Below, in pieces: positions 5,689-60,003 of a stretch of 64,000 nucleotides of DNA (its first letter is position 1; each line of letters starts with the position of its first letter). A model generated the notes under the pieces. The model saw only the letters and a list, made by a program, of their open reading frames with translations, did no database searches and had not been told where the DNA came from. Source of the stretch: a virus. The stretch lies in IMG/VR virus record IMGVR_UViG_3300025118_000005, positions 1 through 64,000 of that record. One strand, written 5' to 3'. The position numbers were made by a program, and so were the translations under genes.

Positions 5689-7959
5689 ATGAAACCTATA
5701 ATCAACAAGCAATCTATTAAATCCAGCGGAGTCCAAAAGTCTGTTTCTTTCGGAATTAAATCCTCTGGACTGCATCACATCCTCGGAATCCTCCGTAATC
5801 AACTTTACTCGGATAAGATTCTTGCGGTCATTCGCGAATACTCCTGTAATGCGGTTGACGCTCATACGGAAGCGGAACATTCAGACCGTCCTATCGAAGT
5901 AACCGTCCCGACTCGCATGAGCCTGTTCTTCAAGGTTCGTGATTTCGGCCCAGCACTTTCAGAGGACGAAATTTCAGACGTTTATGCTTTCTATGGTGAG
6001 TCTACCAAGCGAGGCAGCAATGACCAGATTGGTATGTTGGGCATAGGTTCCAAAGCGGCATTTGCCTATGGAGACAATTACGTTATTAATTCTTTCCTAG
6101 ACGGCACAAAGTATATTTACAACGCCTTCATTGACCCCTCGCAGATTGGTCAAATCTCCAAAATCGGTGAGGAACCGACGAAGGAAGAAAATGGTATCGA
6201 AATCGTTGTGCCTGTAAACGGCGATGATGTCCAAGAGTTTTACGAAAAGGCGAAAGACCTATTTCGTTGGTTCAAAGTGACTCCAAAAATTAAGGGACAC
6301 ACTCAATTTGAATATGAGAATGAGGCACTCTTTGAAGCTGAAGGATGGAAATGGTTAGCCGAAAAGCGTGACCGTTATGATAAGGGTGAGGCAGTTGCGG
6401 TCATGGGAAACATTGGTTATCCTATTGACCTCTATTCTTTGGGAGAGTTTGACGAAGAAGAACAGCAGTTGAAGGAACTACTTTGCGGCAACCTCGTAAT
6501 GAAGTTCGACATTGGCGATTTGGAAATCTCAGCATCACGCGAAAAACTCCAATATACTGAGTACACAAGGAAGAATATAAAGAAGAAATTGAAAACCGTT
6601 TCTGATGAGCTTATCAGCGTCATCAGTAAACAATTCAATGATGCTAAAACGCTATGGGATGCAAAGTGCCTCATGGGTTCTATATTCGACATGGCGAGTA
6701 ATCTCTATAACTTGCGTAATTTCGTAGCAAAGAATATGAAATTCAAAGGTAAGAAGATCGGTGAATCTCATATTAATGGTTACTATCAGCATACCAAAGA
6801 TGCCAAAGGTAATTGGGTAGAATCCGAAACGGTTGAGATGTTTAATTGGGTTAAATCATGGCGAAGCGCAAAGTATAAGAAAACAGAGACTCACAACATT
6901 GAAGCGGCGAAGAACGTAGTGGTTATTGAGAATGACCAAGGACATTACCGTGGAATTATGGGCAAGATTCTCCCTATCCTTCTGGAGAAGGAGCAGAAAC
7001 CTTTCTTGGTTAAGTTTAAGGACGCGAAAGAGAAAAAGCGTTGGCTTGATTATTCTGGTTTTGATGGCAAGATGCTCAAATTGTCAGAGATGGAAAAACG
7101 TCCATTGTCAGACTTTGCGGGATACTCTGCTGCTCCTGCTGGTTCGGGAGTGGGTGAGAAGAACAAAAAGCACTCTGCAAAATGCTTCTCGTTCAAATTC
7201 GACCATGCTGGTCACAGTTGGGACAGAAAGAAGTCTGCTTGGTGGAAGATTGCCGAAGTAGATGTAGCCAACGACAAGGGAGTGTACGTTATCCTTGACG
7301 CTTTCAACATTGAAAAGAAGGTGAAGGGTCATCACGATATGTACGAAAATCCGCACAGTCTCAAGCAAGTTAAAGAGGCTTTTGACAAGGCTAAAATCCC
7401 CTTCCCGAAAGAGGTTCACGGTTTCAAGATTAAGAATCGTAGTGACGTAGAAGGCAAGGAGAACTGGATGAGCTTTTGGGATTACGTTCGGGTTACTCTC
7501 CAGACTCAACTGGAAGAAGGTAACTATGAACAGGCATGGGCCGATCTCTTGGAAATCAAGGAATTGGAGAACTGTCGTGACTTCACCGAGGACTATTGGA
7601 ATTGGGACGCAAAGGGTCTATGTGCCGCTTTAAGCCAACGTAAAGACGAACTGGCACTCAAGGACGTAGAAGGGTCTGCACACGCTTTAGCGAGCAATTA
7701 TGGACGAATGAAGGCACTCTCTGATGATGTTGCCGTTCAAAGTATCAAAGACCTCTGCTCCTCTCATGGAGTCAAGGTGAACATTAAGACGCAACCCTCG
7801 TTTTCGCTGGTAAAGGGACTCAAAGCAGTTTTGAAACGCTACGAAATGTTGGAAGATATATCGTCTACGGTCTGGCGTAACAGTAAGACCAAAAGTATGA
7901 AAAGCCTAGTCAACTACCTAAACTTGGTTGACGTTTGTAACAACAATCCTCAAACATAG
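5689..7959 (+). CDS. rIIA: rIIA-like protein (N-terminal GHKL/HATPase domain)
   Basis: LYSDKILAVIREYSCNAVDAH, VRDFGPAL, YGESTK, IGMLGIGSKAAFAY and SASREKLQY match T4 rIIA family motifs; rIIB-like gene nearby. Confidence 0.88.
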   Translation: MKPIINKQSIKSSGVQKSVSFGIKSSGLHHILGILRNQLYSDKILAVIREYSCNAVDAHTEAEHSDRPIEVTVPTRMSLFFKVRDFGPALSEDEISDVYAFYGESTKRGSNDQIGMLGIGSKAAFAYGDNYVINSFLDGTKYIYNAFIDPSQIGQISKIGEEPTKEENGIEIVVPVNGDDVQEFYEKAKDLFRWFKVTPKIKGHTQFEYENEALFEAEGWKWLAEKRDRYDKGEAVAVMGNIGYPIDLYSLGEFDEEEQQLKELLCGNLVMKFDIGDLEISASREKLQYTEYTRKNIKKKLKTVSDELISVISKQFNDAKTLWDAKCLMGSIFDMASNLYNLRNFVAKNMKFKGKKIGESHINGYYQHTKDAKGNWVESETVEMFNWVKSWRSAKYKKTETHNIEAAKNVVVIENDQGHYRGIMGKILPILLEKEQKPFLVKFKDAKEKKRWLDYSGFDGKMLKLSEMEKRPLSDFAGYSAAPAGSGVGEKNKKHSAKCFSFKFDHAGHSWDRKKSAWWKIAEVDVANDKGVYVILDAFNIEKKVKGHHDMYENPHSLKQVKEAFDKAKIPFPKEVHGFKIKNRSDVEGKENWMSFWDYVRVTLQTQLEEGNYEQAWADLLEIKELENCRDFTEDYWNWDAKGLCAALSQRKDELALKDVEGSAHALASNYGRMKALSDDVAVQSIKDLCSSHGVKVNIKTQPSFSLVKGLKAVLKRYEMLEDISSTVWRNSKTKSMKSLVNYLNLVDVCNNNPQT

Positions 7960-10758: not shown

Positions 10759-11040
10759 ATGAGCGAAAAAAAGAAACGTAAGTCGGGCGCGGGACGTAAA
10801 AAAGGAAGCGTGAGCTTTTGCCTAGTGCCATTAACTGAATTAAATGCAAAATTACCTACTGGCGCGATTATCGTAGTGAGTAGGAAATACTGCGAGGCAA
10901 TGTCTATTGAAGGACAACCTGTTGTATCCACCCCAAGCATGATGATGCCAATGGCAGTAGCGACCAAGGCGAACGCAGTCCAAGTCACTAATCTTAATGA
11001 CGAGGAAACTACCCCCGAATTAAGCGTTGACAACTGGTAG
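10759..11040 (+). CDS. hypothetical protein with basic AT-hook-like GAGRKKG motif
   Basis: KSGAGRKKGS N-terminus; promoter at 10721/10744. Confidence 0.6.
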   Translation: MSEKKKRKSGAGRKKGSVSFCLVPLTELNAKLPTGAIIVVSRKYCEAMSIEGQPVVSTPSMMMPMAVATKANAVQVTNLNDEETTPELSVDNW

Positions 11041-11060: not shown

Positions 11061-12035
11061 ATGATGACTGAAACCTACTTCCCCGATATTATCGGACAAG
11101 AAACTGTTAAAAAAGCACTCGGCTTTTACATTGACGGATACCAGAAAACTGGTGTGATACCGCATCTCATGTTTACTGCGCCTCGCGGGTGTGGCAAGAC
11201 TACGATGGCAACGGCAATGGCAAAGAACCTTACAAAGAACGGTTCTATCAAGCCTCTCATTACCCTTAACTGTTCCACTGTCAAATCATTGAAGCAGTTT
11301 TTCAATATGATTGTGATACCGCACATGGTTGACACTGACGCAACCGTGCTGTTCGATGAGTGTTCTGAATTGCCAAAGGACGTTACGATGGCACTCTTGA
11401 CCATCACCAATCCAAACCCACGCAACCGTAACGAATTTTCCTATGAGGATTACAACGTGGAGTTTGATTACAGACGCTTGAGTTTCATGTTCGCCACCAC
11501 TGAAGGTCAGAGTATCTTTCATGCACTGATGGACAGGATGGAGCGCATCGACTTGGAAGAATATAAGTTAGATGAATTGGGCAAGATTGTCATGCTGGGC
11601 CTTGAAGGCTACACCGTTGAGAGCAACGCACTAAAGGAAGTCGCGACCGTTCTCCGTGGTAATGCGCGAGCAGGGCAGAAGATGGCAATGAAGATGAAGC
11701 TATTTCTTAATGCTAAAGATAAGGTGAATTTCAATATCAGCGATTGGAAGGAACTCACGGGTAAACTCGGCATCCTGCCTCTCGGCATATCCATACAGGA
11801 ACTCAACCTTATGCGTTACATGGCGCGGAAGAAAACTACTCGCCTCACTGAACTGTCTGCTATCACTGGACTCTCCAAGGGGGCAATCCAGAAGGACTAT
11901 GAATTGTATCTTTCTAAAATGGGTCTAATGGAGATTCAACCAGAGGGACGTTCCCTCACAACAAAAGGGATAGACTATCTTAATGAGCTTGATGGAGTTA
12001 AGAAGCACAAGCGAGACAAGAAAAGTAAAAAATAA
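11061..12035 (+). CDS. ruvB: RuvB-like Holliday junction branch-migration AAA+ ATPase
   Basis: IIGQE, HLMFTAPRGCGKTT (Walker A), LFDE (Walker B), ATT, LMDRM, RGNAR, and a C-terminal winged-helix E.YL...GL....PEGR. Confidence 0.8.
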   Translation: MMTETYFPDIIGQETVKKALGFYIDGYQKTGVIPHLMFTAPRGCGKTTMATAMAKNLTKNGSIKPLITLNCSTVKSLKQFFNMIVIPHMVDTDATVLFDECSELPKDVTMALLTITNPNPRNRNEFSYEDYNVEFDYRRLSFMFATTEGQSIFHALMDRMERIDLEEYKLDELGKIVMLGLEGYTVESNALKEVATVLRGNARAGQKMAMKMKLFLNAKDKVNFNISDWKELTGKLGILPLGISIQELNLMRYMARKKTTRLTELSAITGLSKGAIQKDYELYLSKMGLMEIQPEGRSLTTKGIDYLNELDGVKKHKRDKKSKK

Positions 12036-12332
12036 ATATAAGATAGATGACGAGCCTTTCCAGATGACGCAGTTCGAATGGCGGGGCACATTAAATAATG
12101 GTGATTTATTTGTAGTTATAAAATATAACCTTGGAGCTTGGAAAGTGAAATATGCTGAAACAGAATATGAGTTAAATAATACTAATTTTATTTATGTAGC
12201 TCAACACCCAAAGCCTTTAAGTTTTTTATATAATAATAATGATTTAGATATAGAACAACTTCTAACATATATACAATGGAAATAATGAAAAATAATTTTG
12301 ACTTTAGTCTGGAAGTAGGCTAATATATAGAT

Positions 12333-12404
12333 AGTGAGCGCAATGCTCACGTTCGTTCATCATCATCGAATCCTCTCCGTGTGAAAACGGGGGGGATTTT
12401 TTTT
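12333..12404 (+). ncRNA. candidate ~70-nt small RNA (hairpin, single-stranded seed, terminator)
   Basis: Promoter TTGACT 12298-N17-TAATAT 12321; hairpin GTGAGC-GCAAT-GCTCAC; linker GTTCGTTCATCATCATCG; terminator 12369-12404; no ORF. Confidence 0.65.
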
Positions 12405-13069
12405 GTATTTAACCTCATGGAGTGTAGATAATAAATAAGGCCTTGCTGTATTTTACAGGCAAGCTCGAACAGGTTATGTTAAAATAAGTTTGAAGAATAG
12501 GCTCGCTAAATATATGACTTAAATATACTTCGAAGAAATTAGGCTTGAAATATAGTCTCGTTAAATATGACTTCGAAATATAGGTTGGTTAAATATGAGA
12601 CCGAAATAAAGCAAAAATAAACAGCCTAAATAAGTAAGGCAATATAATACGTAACGTCCATCGTTAGCGTTAAAGTTCTTGATTGAATGTTATCGTTAAA
12701 GTGCCGACCCGTCCCGTCCCGATTTTGAGACCCATTCTCAGTTTCTTAAAAAGGGCGATTTCTCCGGTGCGAAATCTCTCCACACAAGAAATTATTTGAT
12801 GTCCGACCCCACGAAAACAGGTATATCGTCCAAAACAATTACCCTATATAAACGCGATTAATTAGCCTAATTGATTTGCCGCTCACGAATGATTGACAAA
12901 CTATTTAGCCAATCAAAATTCACGAAAAATGATTGACAAAGTAATTTGCCGCTCAAAAATGATTGACAAAAAAAATGCGTGTGATGTACATTATATGCTT
13001 GCTTGTGATTCGGAAAAATGAGATAATTATAACAGTGAAGAAAACAACGAACAAAAGGAAATCAAGCTT

Positions 13070-14048: not shown

Positions 14049-14173
14049 GCCATTGTATGTATTTTTTGCTTGACATCGGCGGGACCGGTCCCGATTTTTG
14101 TCAAGCTTATTTTTGTGTTGTTGTGAATAAGTTTGTTCTTGACTTGGAAACGGATGTATAGTATTATATTAAC

Positions 14174-14383
14174 ATGATGAACGAATTAGATCAACTCAAG
14201 GAAGACATTTGCATGGAGAGCTTCGGTCGCAGCCGAAATCTCGCGCTAGCCGCAGGGCAGTGCGTCAAGTGCGGAACCTACGACCTCAACTTCCGCGATG
14301 AACCATCGCAGCGTGAGTACAAGCTCACTGTGTGGTGTCAGTCGTGCCAAGATGATTTCTTCGGCGTAGGGGAGGAGGAATAG
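14174..14383 (+). CDS. small zinc-finger protein (CxxC...CxxC), leaderless
   Basis: CVKC and CQSCQD; ATG 7 nt after -10 box. Confidence 0.7.
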   Translation: MMNELDQLKEDICMESFGRSRNLALAAGQCVKCGTYDLNFRDEPSQREYKLTVWCQSCQDDFFGVGEEE

Positions 14384-16900: not shown

Positions 16901-17465
16901 TGTTGCGGAAATTGGTGCGAAATCTCGTTTAGAGACTAGCAGTCTGGTAGCCGAAAGTGAATGCTCTGGGAAAACGTATCCATAACAAGGAGCAGGAGCG
17001 AAACGATAGGTATCGGGCGGGGTTCGAATCCTCAACGCGACGACAATTTAGCATAGGTGACGGAACAAACGTCCGACAGAGGAAACGGCCTATGCGACAA
17101 TTTAAGCTGACGACGGTCGGCTTAAGGGTATGGCTGAATATCCCTCCATCATAAGGGGAAAGGCATAGGGCCATGTGAGAGAGTGCAATCGTATGACTTG
17201 CATGGTTCTAGTAAGCTGGAAACAAGAACTGTATTGTGCACTGGCTTTGTAGGTAATGCAGCAATCCTACTACCCATTAATTTTCGTGGTGCTGGATTAC
17301 AGGCCATGATTAACAGACGCGCCTCAAACGGAAAGCAGGGAAGTATTCCACCTGTCGGCAAGAGAGGGAAGCCGTGGCGCGATAACTGAGAACTCACAAT
17401 TTTTCCTGTGGTCGGTACAACCGTTAAAGAGATTGTAGGTACCAACGCCGAAGTCCGCCACGTCA
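16901..17465 (+). ncRNA. array of four structured non-coding RNAs, first with a tRNA-like 3' end
   Basis: Units are closed by terminal helices (GTTGCG/CGCGAC; GCATAGG/CCTATGC; GGGTA/TACCC; CGTGG/CCACG) and separated by AATTT linkers. T-arm GGGG-TTCGAAT-CCTC in unit 1. Confidence 0.65.
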
Positions 17466-24452: not shown

Positions 24453-24634
24453 ATTATACTATTAAAGGCTTGACATTATATAGCGGCGGGACCGGTCCTG
24501 CTTGGTACGTATACGTATAGTACGTATGCGTACAGTGTGTGTGTATGTGTGTGGTAGTACGTATGCGTACAGTGTGAATAACTTTTATTAAAAAAGCCCT
24601 TGACAAATGCCTTGGTGTGTGTTATATTATTACC

Positions 24635-24802
24635 ATGATGAACGAAGAATCGATATACAAAGTAACCCTAGTCAAAGGGCCACAAACATCTATTATGCCT
24701 ATTAAGGCACGTGATGAGGCGCACGCTGTACGTATAGCGCAGCACATGGGCCTAGGCCTAGTGGTGAGGGTAGAATTCGCCTGTATAGACAATTTTAACT
24801 AA
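24635..24802 (+). CDS. hypothetical protein (paralog of 25495..25668)
   Basis: ESIYKVT...A.DE.HA.RI shared with the 25495 ORF. Confidence 0.6.
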   Translation: MMNEESIYKVTLVKGPQTSIMPIKARDEAHAVRIAQHMGLGLVVRVEFACIDNFN

Positions 24803-26799: not shown

Positions 26800-27735
26800 T
26801 TAGTTTTGACCGCATCCTTGACAAGGGCCCTGAGGGTCTACCGATTTAGAGCGGGAGTTTTCATATTCTTTTCTATTAATATAATTTTCCATTGCTTCCT
26901 CTGCTTCTTCGCGACTAGGTGGATTTTTAAAGATATCTCTAGAATGGTCTTTAATAAGCTCCGAAAGACCCCAAAAAGTATTTCTATTATAATTGAGAGA
27001 ACCTTTATCAGCGGGACGAGAGGCGGTTACTCTATCGACCCCTCCTTCCTTTCGGATTCTATAACGATGTACGGGAGTATCATCATCTAGAGAAACCTGT
27101 TTGGAAGAATGGGCGACAGGAACGATATCTTTAATATATTTTAAATGATACCATAATAAAAGATCTTCGAATCCAGTATTGAATATCTTGTGTTCGGGGA
27201 AGAAAACTCCATCTTCTGGCAAAAAGTTACAATCAAATAAAGTAGCCCAAGGTCCGAATCTAAGGGTATCTACAGAATATTGAGCATTATTAATTCGAGG
27301 CTGAAAGGGGAATGGATTTTTTTCCCACGCTCCGACAACGAAAGGAGAATTTTTCTCAACGGCGGTATGTATCATATTCGGACGTTCGGGTAACATGTCG
27401 TCGTCTGCGTCCATAAATAAAATTGATTGATAGTCTTCTTTAAAATTATGCGCTTCTTTAATAAGGCGGTTTTTTGCTTCTCCCACTGTAGAAGCTTTAT
27501 CGTATTCGTATAAATGAACCTTGTCTGCGGTTATCCTGCCCGCCTCTACATATCTAGCTAACTCTACTAAAGAGTTATCTGTAGAATCATCATCTCCAAC
27601 CAAAAGTATCCAACTTTTATCTTTTAAAGATTCATCTAGGCTAAGAAGGCAATTTTCTAAACAACTTTCTTCATTGTACATGGAAAGCAATACTTGATAG
27701 CCATGTCTCTCGGGTTGATATTCGTTTGACCACAT
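26800..27735 (-). CDS. GT2-family glycosyltransferase
   Basis: SMYNEE, DDDSTDNS, GEAKN, FMDADD (DxD), GFED. Confidence 0.85.
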   Translation of the reverse strand: MWSNEYQPERHGYQVLLSMYNEESCLENCLLSLDESLKDKSWILLVGDDDSTDNSLVELARYVEAGRITADKVHLYEYDKASTVGEAKNRLIKEAHNFKEDYQSILFMDADDDMLPERPNMIHTAVEKNSPFVVGAWEKNPFPFQPRINNAQYSVDTLRFGPWATLFDCNFLPEDGVFFPEHKIFNTGFEDLLLWYHLKYIKDIVPVAHSSKQVSLDDDTPVHRYRIRKEGGVDRVTASRPADKGSLNYNRNTFWGLSELIKDHSRDIFKNPPSREEAEEAMENYINRKEYENSRSKSVDPQGPCQGCGQN

Positions 27736-27781
27736 ATTTACTTGATTTTTTACAAGATAACATATATTATAAAATAGTCAA

Positions 27782-28648
27782 ATGAAAGGTATAATTTTAA
27801 CTGGAGGACACGGTTCAAGGCTATATCCTTCAACCTTGGCTACGAACAAACAGCTTTTACCCGTCTTTGATAAACCCATGATCTATTATCCGTTGACGAC
27901 GTTAATGGAAAACGGCGTTAATGATATTTGTATTATTACAAACCCTGCCTCCACGTCGAACTTCAAAAAATTAATGGGAGATGGGTCTCAGTGGGGTATA
28001 AAAATTATATACAGAGTCCAAAAAGAGCCCAAGGGGATTCCCGAGGCATTTTTAATTGCTAAAAGCTTTCTAAAGCGTGACGACGGAGTAGTTTTGATAC
28101 TCGGAGACAATATTTATTATGGAGCAAATGATATTTTGCAAGATGCTTTTTATAATTTTAGTTCAGGCGGTACGATCTTTGGTTATCGCGTGGAAGACCC
28201 AAGACGATATGGGGTTGTAGAGATGCAAAGCAATAAAGTTTTATCTCTCGAAGAAAAACCCAAAAAGCCTAAAAGCAATTTCGCTATACCGGGACTCTAT
28301 CTTTTTGACTATGACGTAATCGAAATTACAGAAAAATTAAAACCCTCTAAACGTGGCGAGCTTGAGATTACAGACGTTATGAAAGCGTACCTTCGTGATG
28401 ATGCCCTAAGTGCATTTAAGCTCCCTAGAGGAACAGTGTGGCTCGATGCGGGTACTTCTAGTAGCCTGTTTGATAGCTCCGCGTACGTTCAGACGATTGA
28501 AAAGCGACAAGGCGTAAAAATTGGCTGCCCAGAAGAAGCGGCTTACCAACAGGGTTACATTAACAAGACACAATTAAGAAAATTAATAAAAAACACTCCT
28601 GATTGTGAGTATAAAAATTATCTATTAACAATATTAAAAAATGAATAA
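27782..28648 (+). CDS. rfbA: glucose-1-phosphate thymidylyltransferase
   Basis: MKGIILTGGHGSRLYP, NKQLLPVFDKPMIYYPL, LGDNI, EEKP, RGELEITD, WLDAGT. Confidence 0.95.
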   Translation: MKGIILTGGHGSRLYPSTLATNKQLLPVFDKPMIYYPLTTLMENGVNDICIITNPASTSNFKKLMGDGSQWGIKIIYRVQKEPKGIPEAFLIAKSFLKRDDGVVLILGDNIYYGANDILQDAFYNFSSGGTIFGYRVEDPRRYGVVEMQSNKVLSLEEKPKKPKSNFAIPGLYLFDYDVIEITEKLKPSKRGELEITDVMKAYLRDDALSAFKLPRGTVWLDAGTSSSLFDSSAYVQTIEKRQGVKIGCPEEAAYQQGYINKTQLRKLIKNTPDCEYKNYLLTILKNE

Positions 28649-29225
28649 CACAGAATGTAATCATGTACTAACAAAAATAGCTTCTAAGTATAAAGCTTAT
28701 ACAGATAAGTGCCCAATGAGCGAGTATAACATCCAACATGTATATACTGAGATTTATGGGCCTTTATTCGAGCATTTAAGGTATGAGCCCGTAAGATTAC
28801 TCGAAGTTGGTGTTAGATGGGGCGGTTCGTTGGCAATGTGGCGTGATTTTTTCCCTAACGCAGTAATTTATGGGGTAGATATTAACCTCTCTCAGATGGT
28901 CGGTGAGCTAAAATCTGTAAATGTTATAGAAGGAAATGCGTATGACGAAGATTTTGCGAAAAAACATTTTGAAAATACAGAATTTGACATTATGATTGAT
29001 GACGGAACCCACGCGGAAAAAGACATTATAAAGTATTTTAACATTTATCGTAAATATTTAAAAAAAGGCGGTTATTTAATTGCTGAAGACATCGCGACTA
29101 TTGAATTAGCAAGAAACGTTATCGATAATTTTAACGGGCCTATTAATAATATGAGCATAATTGATAGAGCTCATTGTATTCCTTCAACGAGAGGAGAGAG
29201 AATGATCATGTATAAAGGCTGCTAA
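28641..29225 (+). CDS. class I SAM-dependent (sugar O-)methyltransferase
   Basis: LLEVGV..GGSL, YGVDI, DIMIDDGTH, GGYLIAED. Confidence 0.85.
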   Translation: MNNTECNHVLTKIASKYKAYTDKCPMSEYNIQHVYTEIYGPLFEHLRYEPVRLLEVGVRWGGSLAMWRDFFPNAVIYGVDINLSQMVGELKSVNVIEGNAYDEDFAKKHFENTEFDIMIDDGTHAEKDIIKYFNIYRKYLKKGGYLIAEDIATIELARNVIDNFNGPINNMSIIDRAHCIPSTRGERMIMYKGC

Positions 29226-29428
29226 TGAAAAAAGAAAATTATTTTAATAAACTTAAGTCTCCTATTCCCCAGCATCTTACTCCAGAAGAGAGGGAAAGGT
29301 GGGAAGAGGAGCACGAGTGGGAATTACAGGAAAGAGCGAGACGTAGAAAAGAGGGTTTTTATGATCAAAAGCCTAAAAAGAAAAATATAGGTTGGAAACT
29401 TATACAAAAATTGTTTAAAAAGAGCTAA
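29225..29428 (+). CDS. hypothetical protein
   Basis: TAATG coupling to the previous gene. Confidence 0.55.
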   Translation: MKKENYFNKLKSPIPQHLTPEERERWEEEHEWELQERARRRKEGFYDQKPKKKNIGWKLIQKLFKKS

Positions 29429-29440
29429 AAAGGATCATTA

Positions 29441-30364
29441 ATGGTATTACTTTTAGGAGGAAGCGGATATATAGGCAATCAGTTTTTAAAAGAACTGAAG
29501 AAAATGGGCATAAATACTTATGACTTATCTCGTTCTGAATATGATTACTATGATGTAGACACACTAAGGCGCTTAATAAAGACTAAGGGGATTAAATTTT
29601 TAATTAATTGTGCTGGGTATACTGGTAAACCCAACGTGGACGCTTGCGAAGATAATCAAAAGGAAGCCCTTCGAGGAAACGTGACGCTTCCTAGAGTCAT
29701 AGCAAAAGCCTGTAGGTACTCAAAGGTTCCTTGGGCGCACGTCTCTTCGGGATGTATTTACAATGGAACCAAGGGGGCTAATGGATTTACTGAAAAGGAT
29801 GTACCTAATTTTACATTTGACTATGGTAACTGTAGTTATTATTCTGGTACAAAGGCTATGGCAGAAGAAGCACTATTGAAAGAATCAGATCAATGTTATA
29901 TTTGGAGGTTAAGGATACCGTTTGATGAATTTGATGGATCAAGAAATTATTTGTCTAAATTAATGCGTTACCCAATGCTCCTAAGCGTTGATAATTCTAT
30001 TTCTCATAGGGGAGATTTTGTTAAATATTGTCTAGCGTTATGGCAAGCGAAAGCAGATTTTGGTATATATAATGTAGTTAACACCGGTGCAGTAACAGCA
30101 AAACAAATAACGGAAAAAATGAAGGAGATATTAAATAATGATATGTCTTTTAAGTTTTTTCAATCTGAACAGGATATGTATAGTTTAGGTGCCGCTCGTA
30201 CCCCACGTTCTAATTGTGTTTTAGATAATACTAAGTTAAGAAAAGCCCTTTACCCCAAAAGGGTTCGTACCGCTCTCAAAGCTGTAGAGCATTCACTTAA
30301 ACATTGGATAGAAGAAGGTAAAGAAAAAAAAGATAATGGAATCCCCAATTCGTATTGGGATTAA
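29441..30364 (+). CDS. RmlD-like NDP-4-keto-6-deoxysugar reductase (possibly bifunctional epimerase/reductase, UER1/NRS-ER type)
   Basis: GGSGYIG, NCAGYTGKPNVDACE, SSGCIY, YSGTK, LRIP, RSNCVLD..KL. Confidence 0.8.
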   Translation: MVLLLGGSGYIGNQFLKELKKMGINTYDLSRSEYDYYDVDTLRRLIKTKGIKFLINCAGYTGKPNVDACEDNQKEALRGNVTLPRVIAKACRYSKVPWAHVSSGCIYNGTKGANGFTEKDVPNFTFDYGNCSYYSGTKAMAEEALLKESDQCYIWRLRIPFDEFDGSRNYLSKLMRYPMLLSVDNSISHRGDFVKYCLALWQAKADFGIYNVVNTGAVTAKQITEKMKEILNNDMSFKFFQSEQDMYSLGAARTPRSNCVLDNTKLRKALYPKRVRTALKAVEHSLKHWIEEGKEKKDNGIPNSYWD

Positions 30365-30479
30365 TTATTTTAATTATTGTTGTTTTATTTGCCATGAGAA
30401 AAGAAATTAAATTTCCATCTAGCCCCCCTCCTGTTGACGATGGAAATATATACTTTCTATTAACGAATATAAATAAATT

Positions 30480-31292
30480 ATGAAGATTATCGCTGAGATT
30501 GGTATAAATCACAATGGAGAAGTCTCTTTGGCTAAAAAGCTAATCGACATTGCTTTAATTGCTGGATGTAGCCATGTAAAGCTTCAAAAGCGTAATCCAG
30601 ACCTCTGCGTACCCGAACATCAAAAAAACGTCTCTAAGAGTACTCCTTGGGGCAATATGACCTATCTGGAGTATAAGCACAGAATCGAATTTAACCATAA
30701 ACAATATAAAGAGATATTTGACTATTGTGATCTTAAAGGCATAAAGTGCTTCGCGAGCGTTTGGGATAAAGACTCTGTAGACTTCATGATGAAATATGCC
30801 GATATGGCAAAAATCCCTTCTGCTTTAATCACTGATTTAGAATTATGTGAATACGCGAGGTGGAAGAACAAAGAACTATTAATCTCTACAGGTATGTCCA
30901 CAGAAGAGGAAATAGAGCAGTGTGTTGAAGCTTGTAGTCCAGATGTAATTTTTCATACCAACTCTACTTATCCGGCTCCCGTCTCAGAGCTTAACCTTTC
31001 GTATATAACTTGGTTAAAGGAGAAATACCCTCATTCAATTATTGGATATAGTGGACATGAATACGGTTTGGTCCCAACGTTTGCTGCTGTTGTCATGGGG
31101 GCGGAATATATTGAAAGGCATATTACCCTAGATCGAACAATGTGGGGGTCTGATCAAATGGCCTCGGTAGAGCCTGCGGGATTAATCAAAATGGTCAAAG
31201 CTATTAAAGATCTCAAATCAAGCGTGGGTCATGGAGGCCCACGTGAATTGTTAGAGAGTGAAAAAGCCAAAAGACAGAGTCTAAGAAAATGA
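30480..31292 (+). CDS. neuB: NeuB-family nonulosonate synthase (no C-terminal SAF domain)
   Basis: IIAEIGINHNG, KLQKR, KIPS, ISTGMS, STYP, GYSGHE, IERHITLD, GSDQ.AS. Confidence 0.92.
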   Translation: MKIIAEIGINHNGEVSLAKKLIDIALIAGCSHVKLQKRNPDLCVPEHQKNVSKSTPWGNMTYLEYKHRIEFNHKQYKEIFDYCDLKGIKCFASVWDKDSVDFMMKYADMAKIPSALITDLELCEYARWKNKELLISTGMSTEEEIEQCVEACSPDVIFHTNSTYPAPVSELNLSYITWLKEKYPHSIIGYSGHEYGLVPTFAAVVMGAEYIERHITLDRTMWGSDQMASVEPAGLIKMVKAIKDLKSSVGHGGPRELLESEKAKRQSLRK

Positions 31293-32317
31293 AACGAGCC
31301 TTACATCTATTTCCATCCGACGGACATAATAACTCTGGAGATTTTATTATAGGCCCCGCAACGAAATGGCATTTCGAAAAAAATATTGTAAAAGAAGAAA
31401 TAGAGTGGTCCAACAAAAATGTTAGGGATTATTTTGAAGATAAAGATGCTGACATGGTTAATAAGTATGATTATTTATTAATTGGAGGAGGTGGTTTAAT
31501 ATTACCCGATACTAACCCTAATAATATATCATGCTGGCAATGGCCCGTATACTGTGATACTCTAAGAAAAATAACTGTCCCTATTTATGTTTTATCTATA
31601 GGTTATAATCTATTTTATAACCAAAAAATTACCATGATGAACCAAGCGGTCCCATCAGAGATTCCGCAAAGGTCTACTATTTTCAAAAACAATATTGAGA
31701 CTTTAATTGAAATTAGCAAGCATTTTTCGTTAAGGCATAATGGAGATTGTGACCGACTAAAAGAAATCGTTGATCCAGAGTATCATGATAAAATCAAATT
31801 TGAATTTTGTCCCACTATAGAGTTTTCTAAAGATTATAAAGAGAAACACAAATTATCGTCCGATACAAGGGATATATACGCATTTGAGGTTAAAGACGAT
31901 AGACCAGATAGGAGATATCATAATACATCCAGACAAATTTTTTATGATCACTTAAAGAATTTTATTCTGCATCTTTTATCCTTAAACAAAAAAGTTTGTG
32001 TTTTATCTCATGACGGAAGCACGTCTTTTAAATCTTATCTTGATAAAGTAGGCGTAAACGTGGGCTTTATTAGTAACGCTTTTTCTACGGAAGAAAAAAT
32101 TATATCCAATTACTTAAAGATCGACAAATTATTTTGTATGGCTGGACACAGTCAAATGATGGGGCATGCGCTGGGATGTAACGTGATTAGCATGATCAGC
32201 CATAATAAACAAAAATACTTCTTAGAAGACATAGGGGAATATATCGATAACAAATATGTTGATGTTAACAACGAACATGTATATAGTAAACTAATGGGAA
32301 TATATGAACAAATATAA
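31289..32317 (+). CDS. polysaccharide pyruvyl transferase-like protein
   Basis: NSGD, LIGGGGL, SIG, SLR, H.....A.G, SH..K pattern. Confidence 0.7.
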   Translation: MKRALHLFPSDGHNNSGDFIIGPATKWHFEKNIVKEEIEWSNKNVRDYFEDKDADMVNKYDYLLIGGGGLILPDTNPNNISCWQWPVYCDTLRKITVPIYVLSIGYNLFYNQKITMMNQAVPSEIPQRSTIFKNNIETLIEISKHFSLRHNGDCDRLKEIVDPEYHDKIKFEFCPTIEFSKDYKEKHKLSSDTRDIYAFEVKDDRPDRRYHNTSRQIFYDHLKNFILHLLSLNKKVCVLSHDGSTSFKSYLDKVGVNVGFISNAFSTEEKIISNYLKIDKLFCMAGHSQMMGHALGCNVISMISHNKQKYFLEDIGEYIDNKYVDVNNEHVYSKLMGIYEQI

Positions 32318-32918
32318 TCCGCACAACCCTCACGTAAGCCCAACGGAGATAAAGCGATCTTTATCTAAGCATAAAACCGAAGAGCACATAGACTATAAAA
32401 GTTTTTATAATGAAATAAATTATATTTCCCCGGGTATTCATATGCGAAGCTATTATGATGTTTGCGTGGGTAAACTTAATGAGGGAGAAAAGTGGTTAGA
32501 CGTAGGCTGTGGGTGCGCAAATTTTTTAAAACAAGCTATATCCGATAAAAATATAAAGCTTTACGGAATGGACGTAGTTGACGAAAGTGTTACTCGCGCG
32601 ATTAAGAACGGGGTTAATTGTATTAAAAATTCCGCGTCAGACCCATATCCTTATGAAAATGAAAGTTTTGATATGGTTACCTCAACGGACGTGTTAGAGC
32701 ATTTACATCCGAACGATGTAGACAAAGCTTTAAAAGAAATATTCAGGGTAGTAAAAAATAATAGGCACGCCCTCTTAGCTCCAGCAACGACGCCCGACCT
32801 AACGGGGCTCTTGCACCTTACCGTGCAATCCAGAGATTGGTGGGTGAAGAAACTACAAGAAACGGGCTTCCAATTAGTTTCATACGTTGCCTACAAAGGA
32901 ATTCTTTTGCGCAAATGA
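32304..32918 (+). CDS. class I SAM-dependent methyltransferase
   Basis: WLDVGCG, YGMD, FDMVTSTDVLEH, EIFRV. Confidence 0.88.
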   Translation: MNKYNPHNPHVSPTEIKRSLSKHKTEEHIDYKSFYNEINYISPGIHMRSYYDVCVGKLNEGEKWLDVGCGCANFLKQAISDKNIKLYGMDVVDESVTRAIKNGVNCIKNSASDPYPYENESFDMVTSTDVLEHLHPNDVDKALKEIFRVVKNNRHALLAPATTPDLTGLLHLTVQSRDWWVKKLQETGFQLVSYVAYKGILLRK

Positions 32919-33550
32919 AAACTTTTTCTCTTATCTTGGCTCGAGGAGGGAGCAAGGGTATACCTAATAAAAATATAATCAAATTGGGTCATATTCCCCT
33001 CATTCAATATTCTATAGAAGCCTCTAAGGCGTCCAGTGTTGACCAAACATGGGTAAGTACAGACTCTTTAAAAATAAGAGACACCGCAGCTAAGTTGGGA
33101 GCATTTGTTATAAACCGGCCAGACGAAATTTCCCAAGATAATTCAAAAAGTGACGAAGCTCTAGTCCATTTTGCGAAAAATATAGATTTTGATATATTAG
33201 TATTTATTCAGCCCACTTCTCCCCTACTTAAAGCGAAAGACATTGATAAGGGGATACAAATGATGAAAGACTATGATTCCGTCTTTTCCGTTTACAAAGA
33301 GCACTGGATTCCCGAGTGGAATTTGAATGGAACCCCTTATCATTGGGATATCGCTAATCGGCCGATGAGACAAGACGTTCCCGAAACTTATGTGGAAAAC
33401 GGAGCTTTTTATATTACTACTAAAAAAGCCTTGTTAAATTCTGGGTTAAGATATAGCGGTAGAATAGGGATGACGGAGATGCCCAAGAATAGAAGCTTTC
33501 AAATAGATACTCCAGATGACTTAGAATTAGTAAAAAAGCTTTTATATTAA
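32915..33550 (+). CDS. neuA: acylneuraminate cytidylyltransferase
   Basis: ARGGSKGIPNKN, VSTDS, QPTSPL, RQD, ENGAFY, IDTPDD. Confidence 0.93.
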   Translation: MKTFSLILARGGSKGIPNKNIIKLGHIPLIQYSIEASKASSVDQTWVSTDSLKIRDTAAKLGAFVINRPDEISQDNSKSDEALVHFAKNIDFDILVFIQPTSPLLKAKDIDKGIQMMKDYDSVFSVYKEHWIPEWNLNGTPYHWDIANRPMRQDVPETYVENGAFYITTKKALLNSGLRYSGRIGMTEMPKNRSFQIDTPDDLELVKKLLY

Positions 33551-33575
33551 TTCGTTCCATGCTATAATTAATAGT

Positions 33576-34280
33576 ATGAATAAATTTGTAGAAGACTTTC
33601 AAGAAAACGGATTTGCTCTAGTTAAAGGCGTTCTTACCGGGAAAGAGAACGAAAATTTTAGAAAAATAGTCGAAGAATACTTCGCTGATCATCCGAGTTT
33701 AAAATTCAGCGGAGGAAGATGTCTGGGCGGATATACCAATATCACACCAGAGCTAAAAGAGCTAAACACCTTTCACGAAGACAAAAAAATGTTAGATATC
33801 GCTAAGGCTATTCTCGGAGAAGGTTTTATTTTCGCAGGGCATAGTGACCTTCACCAAGACAAAACAACAGATTGGCATAGAGATATTCTAATGGGGCCGT
33901 ATAAAATATATCAACAACGTGACCTGTGGGATGATGATTATAAAATTATTAAAATCGCATTTCTGTTACAGGATCATAGTGACAATGATTACGGGCTATG
34001 GGTTGTCCCTAAATCACATAATAGGCGAGACGATGATCCCTCTGTGAGAGCCGAGGGAGAGTATTGTGTACATAGTGAAGTGGGAGACGCGATTGTATTT
34101 GACCAAAGAATATTACATAGAGGACAGCTATTATCTCAATATGTAGAGGAGTATAATCAATCGAGGTATTTAATTACATTCGGATACGGACTAGACAATA
34201 CTCATACGGCCGAGCACGCACGAGGCACCGCAGCGAGACAGCAAGATCAACGAAGGAATCTTACTTACAAAAATGGCTAA
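33576..34280 (+). CDS. PhyH-family Fe/2-oxoglutarate dioxygenase
   Basis: WHRD, LWVVPKSH, GDAIVFD..ILHRG, R. Confidence 0.85.
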   Translation: MNKFVEDFQENGFALVKGVLTGKENENFRKIVEEYFADHPSLKFSGGRCLGGYTNITPELKELNTFHEDKKMLDIAKAILGEGFIFAGHSDLHQDKTTDWHRDILMGPYKIYQQRDLWDDDYKIIKIAFLLQDHSDNDYGLWVVPKSHNRRDDDPSVRAEGEYCVHSEVGDAIVFDQRILHRGQLLSQYVEEYNQSRYLITFGYGLDNTHTAEHARGTAARQQDQRRNLTYKNG

Positions 34281-34965
34281 ATTAAAAAAAATATCTGATT
34301 CTGACTTTGATCTTAATAAATCAGTAATTATTGCTGGTAAAGGCCCTACTATATCTAATGTCGAAAAGTTTTTAAGTGGGAAAGACCTAAATGACTTTTA
34401 TATTTGCGGGGTTAATACCGCTTACCAGCTTTTGCCTAAAGTAGATTTTTTATCTTTCTGTGACACAAATGTCTTAGATATTTTAAACAAAAATAGAAAA
34501 GACTTTAATAAAATTAAGAGCCTTGTCTGCCCGTTGGTCTTGAGAAAGATGTATGACAACGGAATGTGCTTCGACACGGATAAGACTTATGAGTGGCTTC
34601 TGGAAGAGCTAAAAGATCTAGATATAAATATATATAATTTTAAATTATTTACTCAGCACTTATTTTTAGAAATAGATAGCGGAAAGATGGATGATTTTTA
34701 TTTTAAAAGCTGCGGGGAAAAAGCAAAGTCAATTCCTCCTGAAGATACTTTAACAAGTAGCTATCATTGTGGATTATTGTGGTTAACGAAAGCGGGTTTC
34801 AAGGATTTTCATATTTTTGGAGTAAGCCAGCAAAACGAATATCACGCTTCTTTTAGCGAAAGTAATGATTGTGGAAATGATAGAGATAGTAAATGGTACG
34901 CAGAAAACTCGTTGAAGGGAGAGAGTATTTTAGAGGAAAATCACTGTAAATATCAATATCACTGA
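34273..34965 (+). CDS. CstII(GT42)/Maf-like nonulosonate transferase
   Basis: VIIAGKGPT...ICGVN...TSS......L...GFK.FHIFGV resembles CstII VIIAGNGPS / TSG...GYKEIYLSG. Confidence 0.6.
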   Translation: MAKLKKISDSDFDLNKSVIIAGKGPTISNVEKFLSGKDLNDFYICGVNTAYQLLPKVDFLSFCDTNVLDILNKNRKDFNKIKSLVCPLVLRKMYDNGMCFDTDKTYEWLLEELKDLDINIYNFKLFTQHLFLEIDSGKMDDFYFKSCGEKAKSIPPEDTLTSSYHCGLLWLTKAGFKDFHIFGVSQQNEYHASFSESNDCGNDRDSKWYAENSLKGESILEENHCKYQYH

Positions 34966-34995
34966 CCCTCAAAAAGTGTATTATAATTAGAGGCT

Positions 34996-35970
34996 ATGAA
35001 TCTTTTAGTCACAGGTGGAGCAGGTTTTATCGGAACCAATTTCGTTAAAATGATGCTAAGAAAAAGAACGGGCGTTAAGTTATTAGTCGTCATGGACAGT
35101 CTTACATACGCTTCTGATTTTAGTAACCTCGAAGAAGATCTAGACGATTATGCTGATTTTAAGTTTGCTAAAGTCGATATAAAAGACGATAAATATATTG
35201 ATTCGACCTTCGAAAAATATGGTATTACCCACGTAGTACATTTTGCAGCAGAAACTCATGTAGACAATTCTATTATCGGGCCAAGAGCTTTTGTAGAGAC
35301 GAACATCCTCGGGACCTTCAATCTTTTAGAGTCTGCTAGAAAACATGAGGTGGAAAGGTTTCATCATATCTCTACTGACGAAGTATTCGGTCATTTGGGA
35401 GAAAAGGGTAAGTTCACAGAAGATACTCCTTATGCTCCTAGGAACCCGTATTCGGCTTCTAAGGCGTCTTCTGACCATTTGGTAAGGTCATACTACCATA
35501 CGTACGAATTACCTGTGACGATCTCAAATTGCTCTAATAATTACGGCCCCTATCAACATGAAGAGAAACTTATTCCTACCATTATTAATTCCATTTTAAA
35601 AAGAAAAAAAATACCAGTATACGGCCAAGGTTTAAACGTAAGAGACTGGATACATGTCGATGATCATTGCGACGCGCTATTAACTGTCTTGAAGAAGGGC
35701 GTCCCGGGAGAAACATATAATATCGGAGCCAACTGCGAAAAAAGAAATCTTGATGTTATTGTCTCTATTTGCGATATCTTAAAAGTAGAGCTCGAAGACT
35801 GTACAGAATTTGTTTGTGACAGATTAGGCCATGATTTTAGATATGCCATAGACGCTTCTAAAATTATAAAAGAATTAAAGTGGAAGCCTAAGATCCCATT
35901 CGAAAAGGGTATTAGTAAGACCGTAGCGCATTATAAGAGTAAATATGATACTGAATTTAGAGACTTATAG
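34996..35970 (+). CDS. rfbB: dTDP-glucose 4,6-dehydratase
   Basis: VTGGAGFIG, DSLTYA, HFAAETHVDNSI, ISTDEV, YSASK, NCSNNYGP, RDWIHV, GHDFRYA. Confidence 0.95.
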   Translation: MNLLVTGGAGFIGTNFVKMMLRKRTGVKLLVVMDSLTYASDFSNLEEDLDDYADFKFAKVDIKDDKYIDSTFEKYGITHVVHFAAETHVDNSIIGPRAFVETNILGTFNLLESARKHEVERFHHISTDEVFGHLGEKGKFTEDTPYAPRNPYSASKASSDHLVRSYYHTYELPVTISNCSNNYGPYQHEEKLIPTIINSILKRKKIPVYGQGLNVRDWIHVDDHCDALLTVLKKGVPGETYNIGANCEKRNLDVIVSICDILKVELEDCTEFVCDRLGHDFRYAIDASKIIKELKWKPKIPFEKGISKTVAHYKSKYDTEFRDL

Positions 35971-35986
35971 CGTGTAAATATAATTA

Positions 35987-36775
35987 ATGCTTGATAAACA
36001 AGTCAAATCAAAAGGGAAAGTCAAGATCAGAGGAGACAAAAAACTCGCGGAAGATCTAAACGAAACCAAAAACAAATATATTGCCGAAAACCCAATTGAA
36101 AGGCAAATTAAAATCAACCAATTTCCTTGGACGGAAAAACAAAAAGAATTTTTCAGAATAGCTTTAGATTATAATACTAAAATTATTTTCGTTAACGGCC
36201 CAGCAGGGACCTCTAAAACCCTTTTGTCCACTTATTGCGGATTGCAGCTTCTCAACATGAAGGCTATTTCAGACATTATGTATCTTCGATCTGCCGTGGA
36301 GAGCTCAGAAAAAAGTCTGGGGTATTTACCCGGAGACGCTAACGAAAAATTAAGATTTTATAATTTACCTTTTCTGGATAAGCTAGACGAACTATTAACT
36401 ACGACTAAACCAGAAAAGCTAGAAGAGCAACGTAGGATTTCTATGTTCCCAGTCAATTTCGCGAGAGGAATGAATTGGAAGGGAAAATGTATTATACTTG
36501 ATGAAGCTCAGAACTCTACAATAAAGGAGGTCGTGACCGTTCTTACGAGAATGGGGCAGGGCAGTAGGTGTTTCGTTTTAGCGGACCCGATGCAAACGGA
36601 CCTTAGAAGCGAGAGTTGTCAGGGAGCGTTTGAAAACTTATCAAAACTATTCTCAGACGAAGAAAGCGCAGCAATGGGAATTTATACGTTTAACTTCTCC
36701 GAGGAGGATATTATGAGATCAGAGTTAGTTAAATTTATAGTCCAAAAAATAAACAAAGAAGGAGAAAGCAAATGA
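35987..36775 (+). CDS. phoH: PhoH-family protein
   Basis: GPAGTSKT, LGYLPG, ARG, ILDEAQN, LTRMG, D..QTD, DIMRS. Confidence 0.92.
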   Translation: MLDKQVKSKGKVKIRGDKKLAEDLNETKNKYIAENPIERQIKINQFPWTEKQKEFFRIALDYNTKIIFVNGPAGTSKTLLSTYCGLQLLNMKAISDIMYLRSAVESSEKSLGYLPGDANEKLRFYNLPFLDKLDELLTTTKPEKLEEQRRISMFPVNFARGMNWKGKCIILDEAQNSTIKEVVTVLTRMGQGSRCFVLADPMQTDLRSESCQGAFENLSKLFSDEESAAMGIYTFNFSEEDIMRSELVKFIVQKINKEGESK

Positions 36776-37554
36776 GTGACCAAGCAAGAACTAAAAAAGA
36801 AGTAGAAGCCGACTTGTTACTCAAGCAAGCCGAACTAAAATATAAAGAGGCCGAGATTGAAAAGACTAAAGCCGAAACCAAGAAGGTCCAAGCAGAAGCT
36901 GGAAAAGCTCAGCTAGAATTTGAAAAGGCCCACAACTCTAGAAGCAAAGAGTTATATACGGACGAAGAAAATTATTTATATAGATTCTCTAAAGACGTAA
37001 ACCACCATTCCGTACAAGCATGTATGAGCAAGCTCACAGAATGGCATCGTAAAGACTCCAAGTGCAAAATAGAAATCGTTTTTTCTTCTCCCGGAGGAAG
37101 TATCGTTGACGGATTTGAATTATTTGATTTCATTCAAGAACTTAGATCTAAAGGTCATCATATCTCGACGGGCTCGTTGGGTATGGCCGCTTCTATGGCG
37201 GGAATCCTTCTCCAAGCTGGAGACACTAGGTGGATTGGTCATCAAGCATGGTTGATGATTCACAGAGCCGCGTTCGGAGCCATAGGTAAAACGTATGAGA
37301 TAGAAGACGAAGTAAGACTTGTTAAAAGAATCGAAGAGCGCGTCCTAGATATCTTTACATCAAGATCCAAGCTCAGCAAGCGCAGGCTCAAAAGAAACTG
37401 GGATAGAAAAGATTGGTGGATTGACGCAGACGAATGTCTAGAGTTAGGTTTGGTAGACGAAATTAAAGCTATGATGCCAGAGCACCAAGTTAGCGCCAAA
37501 AGCAAAAAGAAGGTTAAAAAAAATGTACGGAAAGCTAAAAAAAGTTTGGAATAA
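36772..37554 (+). CDS. ClpP-like (S14) serine protease with N-terminal coiled coil
   Basis: SSPGG, AASMA (Ser), MIH (His), D.W.DA.ECLELGLVDEI. Confidence 0.88.
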   Translation: MSDQARTKKEVEADLLLKQAELKYKEAEIEKTKAETKKVQAEAGKAQLEFEKAHNSRSKELYTDEENYLYRFSKDVNHHSVQACMSKLTEWHRKDSKCKIEIVFSSPGGSIVDGFELFDFIQELRSKGHHISTGSLGMAASMAGILLQAGDTRWIGHQAWLMIHRAAFGAIGKTYEIEDEVRLVKRIEERVLDIFTSRSKLSKRRLKRNWDRKDWWIDADECLELGLVDEIKAMMPEHQVSAKSKKKVKKNVRKAKKSLE

Positions 37555-37616
37555 AATTAGACATTGGGGCTGTAAAGTAGGATTATGTAATCTAGACAGG
37601 TGCAAATGCCAATGTC

Positions 37617-38336
37617 ATGAAAATAAGTAATTCACATAAGTTTATTTTTTTATCTAACCCGAAGTGTGGCTCTAGTTCACTAAGGAGGACTTTATATCCT
37701 TATAGTCAGATAGACGCGCATAGTTTATATAAAAATGCTCCGTCGGGAAATAAAGAAATTATAAAACAAAATTTCATTAATATACTACATATAAGCGCTA
37801 AGGAGCTTAAGCACAGTATTAATCAATCAAACCTTCCTGATATATGGGACGAGTATTATACATTTAGTACAGTTAGAAATCCTTGGAGAAAAATGGTTTC
37901 TTGGTACTTTTTCCTTCAGCCCGATAAAAATATGTTAACGATACTAGATGCTCGTAACGCCTATGATATAGACTCTGCCTATACTCCGCACTTTAATGAT
38001 TTTGTAGACCATTTGGCCAATAACGCCCGAGAGACCCTTCTTCCTAGTTATGATTTCTTTTTTAAAGACTGGGATACCGGAGCGGAACTTATGGATGATG
38101 TTTTTAAACTGGAAGACCTAGACGCTACGCTCCCTCCCCGTCTCGAAGAAAAGACAGGCCTTAAGCTGGAGACTCCCTTGCCTAATTATATGCCAGATTT
38201 TAAATTAGAAGCTCAATCCAAGCATGTTAAATTTAAAGGCGACCCTTACGATTTATACAACGAATCTTCCAAACAATTCGTTAGTGAGTTCTACAAAAGT
38301 GATATAGAAAAATTTGATTATTCCTTCGGAGAATAA
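37617..38336 (+). CDS. sulfotransferase family 2 protein
   Basis: FIFLSNPKCGSSS, VRNPW..MVSWY, KLEDL, YKSDIEKFDY. Confidence 0.85.
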   Translation: MKISNSHKFIFLSNPKCGSSSLRRTLYPYSQIDAHSLYKNAPSGNKEIIKQNFINILHISAKELKHSINQSNLPDIWDEYYTFSTVRNPWRKMVSWYFFLQPDKNMLTILDARNAYDIDSAYTPHFNDFVDHLANNARETLLPSYDFFFKDWDTGAELMDDVFKLEDLDATLPPRLEEKTGLKLETPLPNYMPDFKLEAQSKHVKFKGDPYDLYNESSKQFVSEFYKSDIEKFDYSFGE

Positions 38337-59958: not shown

Positions 59959-59987
59959 TTGACTTAAAGAGGAAATGGTATTATAAT
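59959..59987 (+). promoter_or_regulatory. sigma70-type promoter of the ribozyme locus
   Basis: TTGACT-N17-TATAAT. Confidence 0.85.
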
Positions 59988-60003
59988 ATAATAGATTTAA
60001 AAA

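Follow-up and report, generated by a model that had tools for sequence, protein, structure and literature searches.

The window, by which we mean the whole 64,000-nucleotide stretch of DNA analysed here, covers the first 64 kb of a viral contig from IMG/VR, 79.5 kb long, for which CheckV estimates a completeness of 48%. Between an upstream operon (11061-12285) and a downstream gene for a DUF932 protein, it carries a short unit on the plus strand composed of a promoter, a hairpin, a linker, and a terminator. An earlier reading of this DNA, made from the letters alone and called the sequence-only reading below, had claimed such a unit at 12298-12404, and each of its elements was recovered in our analysis. 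The parts are as follows.

12298..12326, plus strand: sigma70-type promoter of the small RNA (sRNA), with the -35 box TTGACT (12298-12303), a 17-nt spacer, and the -10 box TAATAT (12321-12326)
12333..12404, plus strand: predicted sRNA of about 72 nt, from the fold and our covariance model R1
12334..12350, plus strand: 5'-terminal hairpin with a 6-bp stem (GTGAGC/GCTCAC) and a GCAAU loop, seen by covariation
12351..12367, plus strand: unpaired 17-nt linker, the putative seed, GTTCGTTCATCATCATC as DNA and GUUCGUUCAUCAUCAUC as RNA, made up of invariant columns
12368..12404, plus strand: intrinsic terminator with a 13-bp stem (12368-12399), a 6-nt loop, and eight T/U residues ending at 12404

The promoter matches the consensus at nine of 12 positions, with 17-nt spacing. 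Both ends of the transcript are predictions from the geometry of the promoter and the terminator: we infer a 5' end 7-8 nt past the -10 box and a 3' end at the end of the U-run. The predicted RNA folds with a minimum free energy (MFE) of -29.7 kcal/mol (z = -5.3 versus shuffled sequences), and the linker is open in the MFE structure, with unpaired probabilities of 0.5-0.99 over its length and of only 0.5-0.6 in its first half. In addition, it is here that the upstream operon meets its first terminator. By its sequence, the segment 12298-12404 has the makings of an independent transcription unit, with a promoter, an intrinsic terminator, and no conserved open reading frame (ORF). Two mini-ORFs were considered here, one on the plus strand (MLTFVHHHRILSV) and one on the minus strand (MMMNE..), and both were rejected because start, frame, and stop are not conserved; the minus-strand frame is also shifted by a 1-nt indel in relatives.

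In a search of Rfam, nothing at the locus reached a gathering threshold, and by that measure the sRNA belongs to no Rfam family; the best sub-threshold match, PyrR, scores 28.5 bits where 54 are required and is driven by the terminator. A tRNA-like reading was also tried, in view of the T-loop-like sequence GUUCG..CGAAUCC that appears when the CAU repeats are left out, and rejected: ARAGORN predicts no tRNA, and the resemblance is absent from the diverged forms of the RNA (types B, C, and D) described below. When the locus was compared with a collection of cultured phages by megablast and blastn, nothing meaningful was found, and tblastn of the neighbouring proteins against cultured phages gave remote matches only, with no close cultured relative.

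Two other structured RNAs in the window score above their Rfam gathering thresholds: a manA RNA motif in the early region (17105-17280, 72.7 bits) and, where late genes leave a gap, a group I intron (59972-60185, 67.7 bits). Between the sRNA terminator and the DUF932 gene lie 660 nt of non-coding DNA (12405-13069) with several families of direct repeats. Among them are a 45-nt unit (12481, 12536, and 12564), a 32-nt unit that overlaps TTGACA boxes (12869 and 12939), and the sequence GTTAxCGTTAAAGT, which occurs twice. These iteron-like repeats may be an origin or a regulatory array.

Conservation of the RNA and its linker

A search with the upstream RuvB-like protein led to four IMG/VR relatives with 81-85% identity. 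The unit is present in each of them, its linker identical and its stem changes compensated. A pattern scan of metagenomes then added many marine copies from related phage contigs, several of which come from Tara Oceans. Copies of this form are called type A. In the metagenome search, the first 11 bases of the linker were fixed by the pattern and the remaining six were free; the genomes found through the protein are an unbiased sample for the linker, and the five type A genomes are identical across it. The covariance model R1 finds one copy per genome.

Both stems covary. Among 24 distinct copies, eight of the 19 base pairs have changed on both sides while 99.1% of the cells remain paired; for the 5' hairpin alone, the values are four of six pairs and 100%, and for the terminator stem four of 13 pairs and 98.7%. 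None of 500 shuffles reached the observed values, and a structure placed out of register leaves 49-65% paired. This covariation indicates a conserved secondary structure. Among 27 distinct copies with their flanks, the variable columns are distributed as follows.

Linker: 0 of 17, the first 11 bases having been set in advance by the metagenome search
Promoter: 5 of 29
Hairpin: 10 of 17
Terminator: 19 of 29
End of the upstream ORF: 22 of 32

In other words, the single-stranded linker is more conserved than the rest of the RNA, and the promoter is conserved far beyond the end of the upstream ORF. These comparisons indicate that 12333-12404 is a real, conserved structured RNA gene with an invariant single-stranded seed.

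More distant relatives were reached by aligning the downstream DUF932 protein, which gave access to genomes at 40-59% identity. The covariance model and a motif search located an 11-nt core of the linker, GUUCGUUCAUC, in three other scaffolds, each time immediately before a terminator. In these phages, identity in the DUF932 neighbour is down to 48-59%, and the RNA is different except for the core.

Type B (relative L018): own promoter TTGACA-17 nt-TAATAT, with a different 5' part
Type C (relative L023 and identical metagenome contigs): 5' hairpin, open linker, and terminator
Type D (L017:7958-8035 and L055:~640-705): seed immediately ahead of the terminator in a 3'UTR, that of a homologous gene, with no evident promoter

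The sharing of nothing but a core across otherwise different scaffolds is typical of a base-pairing seed. Type D suggests that the RNA can be derived from a 3'UTR, or else that the seed has moved between scaffolds. The sequence-only reading had made conservation of the seed in relatives one of its tests, and the seed proves to be invariant in type A, with its core kept in the diverged relatives. Its alternative, a degenerate boxA-like leader motif, is rejected: the motif stands directly before a strong terminator in a 72-nt unit, it has a 3'UTR position in other lineages, and the gap between motif and terminator is 0-10 nt in all scaffolds, an arrangement that does not agree with read-through at a boxA/nut site. 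The motif is also mismatched to what we take to be the boxA consensus.

Leaderless early genes and predicted target sites

In the early region of the window (4-26 kb), a promoter scan revealed about 20 cases in which a TTGAC-type promoter has a -10 box ending 5-9 nt before the ATG that opens an ORF; in full, these promoters have the form TTGACA-17 nt-TATAAT. The same leaderless layout is found in a complete 178-kb relative and in more distant relatives. Many late genes (33500-57000) have a lone TATAAT at the same distance of a few bases from the ATG, and an AAGGAG Shine-Dalgarno sequence is seen in few genes only, for example 40763, 55039, 55644, and 62214. From the sequences, leaderless mRNAs seem to predominate throughout the phage clade, both in the window (4200-26000 and 33500-57000) and in the relatives L018, L023, L075, and G001 (L040-L048).

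The early promoters can be sorted by their spacers. In one class, GGAAACC follows about 7 nt after the -35 box (4231, 10721, 11027, 15473, 17980, and 23976), and in the other the spacer contains TTTTGTCATTTATGG (20142, 20376, 21462, 23327, 23489, and 25439). The two spacer classes suggest two classes of regulator binding or of timing. The sRNA promoter resembles the first class, with GGAAGTA in the place of GGAAACC.

The genes that the sequence-only reading had singled out as opening with an exact 12-mer complementary to the linker, at 14174 and 24635, do so: ATGATGAACGAA occurs at both positions on the plus strand, and its reverse complement lies at 12352-12363 in the linker. The former had also been called leaderless, which agrees with the geometry of its -35 and -10 boxes, and the latter has the same geometry; in both, the -10 box ends exactly 6 nt before the A of the ATG, which places the usual +1 on that A. 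The sites and their genes are listed below.

14174..14186, plus strand: predicted target site 1, with 13 contiguous pairs to 12351-12363, the last of them G.U
14174-14383, plus strand: gene of target 1, a 69-aa zinc-ribbon protein, leaderless, with its promoter at 14139-14167
24635..24646, plus strand: predicted target site 2, with 12 contiguous Watson-Crick pairs at a leaderless 5' end
24635-24802, plus strand: gene of target 2, a 55-aa protein, with its promoter at 24600-24628
10759..10767, plus strand: weaker candidate site at the leaderless start ATGAGCGAA, with nine pairs, one of them G.U

Several observations show how these matches stand out: (i) with up to one mismatch, the 12-mer has four matches against 0.70 +/- 0.78 expected, and none of 100 shuffles reached four; (ii) on the coding strand of the 79.5-kb contig, the 9-mer ATGAACGAA has no exact occurrence other than those at 14177 and 24638, inside the two leaderless starts; (iii) in the complete 178-kb relative, three of the four exact occurrences of ATGAACGAA are early gene starts; and (iv) when all 4096 possible 6-mers were compared for pairing with nucleotides 4-9 of the leaderless mRNAs, G.U pairs being allowed, the seed 6-mer adjoining CAU was among the top 10 in the window contig and tied for the best in the complete relative and in L018. 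By cofolding, the two sites rank first and second among 18 leaderless 5' ends, with gains of -15.8 kcal/mol (14174) and -15.2 kcal/mol (24635), followed by 15503 and 18021, which are further weaker candidates. Over the whole genome, however, when imperfect duplexes are compared, the energies of the two sites (-17.0 and -16.3 kcal/mol) place them only seventh and 13th, and energy alone does not set them apart.

The sequence-only reading had also pointed to matches of 7-10 nt at genes that start with a doubled ATGATG (15983, 18021, 24013, 25495, 19652 on the minus strand, and 11061). All six do begin with ATGATG, and the matches are there, but they weigh less as evidence because the doubling is general at leaderless starts, and the matches are largely its by-product. 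In this contig, five of 17 leaderless starts show the doubling compared with two of 129 other ORFs (P = 2e-4), and in the complete relative, three of 21 leaderless starts compared with six of 300 others. On these counts, the doubling is a general property of leaderless starts in these phages, with a rationale independent of the sRNA. It should be mentioned that 25495 is not leaderless, its leader being about 28 nt long.

The start of the zinc-ribbon gene, (ATG)ATGAACGA(A/G)(C/T), is kept, and leaderless, in orthologues down to 51% identity. In the type A genomes that bear the RNA, this site shows only two kinds of change, A to G opposite U and U to C opposite G, and both preserve pairing; the same changes are also the sole synonymous or conservative options at those codons, so that the codon pattern is compatible with pairing without being decisive. 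The protein itself, a C4 zinc ribbon conserved in the clade, has no match in Pfam and matches only families of unknown function in PHROGs. AlphaFold gives a confident four-helix model (pLDDT 92.9), for which Foldseek found no match in the PDB and VIA-align a best Z of 2.1.

The site at 24635 is lineage-specific: the type C orthologue begins ATGAAAACG, and a member of the family in type D begins GATGAACGAAG. For the weaker site at 10759, the orthologue in the complete relative reads GATGAACGAA and offers 10 Watson-Crick pairs. The type D contig has three leaderless genes beginning GATGAACGAAC, GATGAACGAAG, and GATGAGCGAAC, in which a non-coding G at -1 falls within the match, and the leaderless starts of type C have a single AUG although the seed contains CAUCAU. 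Complementarity to the translation initiation regions of the predicted targets is thus found in the relatives as well. It is accompanied by a co-occurrence of the RNA and the target motif: eight of 38 leaderless starts carry the motif at loci that bear the RNA, compared with none of about 77 at loci that do not. Each relative with the RNA has one to three such starts, and in a relative that is 96% complete, the seed and leaderless starts with the motif are both missing. This co-occurrence could partly reflect shared ancestry.

Proposed mechanism, alternatives, and known systems

On balance, we lean towards the view that 12333-12404 encodes a trans-acting, base-pairing sRNA of the phage, the seed of which would be directed at the 5' ends of the phage's own leaderless early mRNAs and would turn them down. 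The anti-start-codon sRNA that the sequence-only reading proposed survives in this form, with a conserved RNA gene, an invariant seed, and complementarity to leaderless early starts that recurs in diverged relatives, but its weaker matches had been overstated.

The RNA would be driven by its own early-type promoter, and the same unit would also be present in the 3' tail of the transcript of the upstream operon, which has no earlier terminator. Its 5'-terminal hairpin would be protective and probably confers stability on the RNA, the 17-nt seed would be exposed, and an intrinsic terminator would supply the U-tail. Pairing is predicted between the seed and the extreme 5' end of the mRNA, that is, AUG or AUGAUG followed by A(A/G)C GA(A/G). 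The zinc-ribbon gene at 14174 would be the conserved target and 24635 a second, lineage-specific one, with 10759, 15503, and 18021 as weaker candidates. Leaderless initiation depends on the accessibility of the start codon and on the length or absence of a leader (PMC8459731). Because it needs a free and unstructured 5'-terminal AUG, a duplex of 12-14 bp starting at +1 should block ribosome binding; the duplex would probably also be exposed to cleavage by a double-strand RNase. As the stable RNA accumulated during infection, the early genes would be turned down. Pairing in vivo, the accumulation of the RNA, and the sign and timing of the regulation are all deduced from sequence.

A more ambitious form of this proposal, which we put forward tentatively and think unlikely, is a dedicated "anti-leaderless" riboregulator, in which the CAU CAU CAU repeats together with a short specificity box would silence a regulon of leaderless early mRNAs. 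Since the seed and the target sites are common to diverged relatives, such an RNA could also silence the early genes of related phages that coinfect or superinfect the same cell.

Four other explanations were weighed against the proposed phage-directed sRNA. The one that survives best accepts a real trans-acting sRNA and looks for its selected targets among host RNAs, for example a host mRNA beginning AUGAACGAAC, with the phage matches being secondary or incidental; the sequence-only reading had left room for host mRNAs as well. An 11-nt core that is frozen across phages at about 50% protein identity, as if it tracked a conserved host sequence, would be expected of such an RNA, and so would a set of phage targets that differs between lineages. 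However, the phage genomes hold conserved complementary sites exactly at the 5' ends of early mRNAs, and the motif is absent from the leaderless starts of relatives without the RNA. A scan of genome contigs with the seed pattern gave only six matches, in unrelated metagenome-assembled genomes (MAGs), and no lead to a host. We consider a host target unlikely, while taking it seriously.

The second explanation is a cis-acting one, in which the unit serves the upstream operon as a 3'UTR or terminator element, or the downstream region as a leader, and the linker is a site for a protein such as an antiterminator or a stability factor. For the upstream operon, this is partly true in any case, the terminator being the first one after its end at 12285, and the type D seed, lying in a 3'UTR without an obvious promoter of its own, would suit it. 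The sequences GUUCG and CGAAU, on either side of the CAU repeats, can pair with each other in a small alternative hairpin, which would overlap the foot of the terminator stem, and the modest unpaired probability of the first half of the linker points the same way; this hairpin, however, opens only the lowest four of the 13 terminator pairs and is absent in types B and C. Moreover, the type A promoter, which is conserved well past its surroundings, drives the 72-nt unit alone, separate promoters at 12933 and 12963 serve the downstream gene, and the exact complement at leaderless starts would be left unexplained. A purely cis-acting role is therefore distinctly improbable in our judgement.

Far less probable is a tiny peptide (..F V H H H R I L..) or a leader-peptide attenuator based on His codons, an idea suggested by the three CAT codons before the terminator. 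In the window and the commonest relatives, an in-frame ATG or GTG precedes TTC GTT CAT CAT CAT, and many copies have a stop codon in the terminator loop. The start codon, though, lies within the hairpin and varies, being an ATG at different positions or a GTG; relative to the 5' end, the frame is displaced by a 1-nt indel (alignment column 23); and in copies of the L006 type the frame reaches the U-run without a stop. None of the three codon positions varies in the linker, the stems change in compensating pairs, and types B, C, and D keep GUUCGUUCAUC but not HHH. Nor is there a Shine-Dalgarno sequence or an antiterminator alternative, the sole alternative pairing being the one that opens four of 13 terminator pairs. 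Finally, mere chance, with the operon ending in an ordinary terminator and both the promoter-like sequence and the 12-mer match being accidents, is barely credible, even though promoter- and terminator-like matches are common in AT-rich DNA (19 promoter-like matches in 5 kb, compared with 9.9 expected) and the 12-mer came from a free search for matches, given the covarying stems, the invariant linker, the conserved promoter, the seed in four scaffolds, and the complementary sites at gene 5' ends in several lineages.

Among known systems, the proposed sRNA can be compared with RybB, MicC, SgrS, and GcvB, which are trans-encoded, seed-type bacterial sRNAs with intrinsic terminators. Like these, it is a short independent unit in which a structured 5' part is followed by a conserved, single-stranded seed (about 10-17 nt) and then by a Rho-independent terminator ending in U residues, and it is predicted to have several partly complementary targets and to pair at the translation initiation region. 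Unlike these, it comes from a marine phage of lytic type and seems to be directed at genes of that phage; its predicted target is the 5'-terminal AUG of leaderless mRNAs and not a Shine-Dalgarno sequence or 5'UTR; and its seed carries tandem CAU, the complement of the start codon. A second general class is that of the 3'UTR-derived sRNAs. The position of the seed directly upstream of an operon terminator recalls this class, above all in type D with no evident promoter of its own, where the RNA would be freed from the 3' end of an mRNA or work inside it, whereas the lineage of the window has a dedicated, conserved promoter between the stop codon and the RNA.

Of the phage RNAs, the c4 antisense RNA of P1 and P7 is, on the account given in a recent review, the nearest in logic: it blocks translation of the ant mRNA in trans through short complementary stretches near the start (Citron and Schuster 1990, in PMC12197685), so that, as predicted here, an RNA encoded by a phage blocks translation of a phage mRNA. 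By the same account, c4 acts at the ribosome-binding site of a single mRNA, ant, within a temperate immunity circuit. Here, the context is not an immunity region, the candidate targets are several and leaderless, and the scaffold is unrelated and has no Rfam match. The sar RNA of P22 and the OOP RNA of lambda are cis-encoded antisense RNAs of 68-77 nt that repress a phage regulatory gene by pairing (PMC12197685). The sRNA described here is likewise a small phage RNA for which repression by pairing is predicted, but sar and OOP are transcribed opposite their targets and are fully complementary to them, whereas here the best sites lie 1.8 and 12.3 kb away on the same strand, with 12-13 nt of complementarity, and no conserved gene is found opposite 12298-12404.

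Set against these systems, the architecture is that of a seed-type, trans-acting sRNA, and it differs in the predicted target class (leaderless 5' termini), the tandem start-codon complement in the seed, and the context of a lytic marine phage. Leaderless mRNAs have no 5'UTR, the site at which almost all known bacterial sRNAs act, and their control by riboregulators is a largely open subject; a 2025 review of phage-derived sRNAs does not mention leaderless mRNAs (PMC12197685). The RNA would offer a compact case, with a seed of 11-17 nt and targets of 12-14 nt at the 5'-terminal AUG. If the anti-leaderless riboregulator is true, it would represent a class of control not yet described, and could mean RNA-based exclusion among abundant marine phages. 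The observations also point to a widespread, uncultured clade of marine phages with genomes of about 175 kb, in which much of the genetic programme would depend on leaderless transcripts.

A few other genes of the contig were noted in passing, in the regions 5689-7959 and 26800-38336. The tail proteins show weak similarity only, to those of S-TIM5-type and T4-like cyanophages. An rIIA-like protein (PHROG 612, E = 1e-117) was recognized, and the block downstream of the rIIA-like gene includes a glycosyltransferase on the minus strand (26800-27735) and a nucleotidyl transferase (27782-28648).
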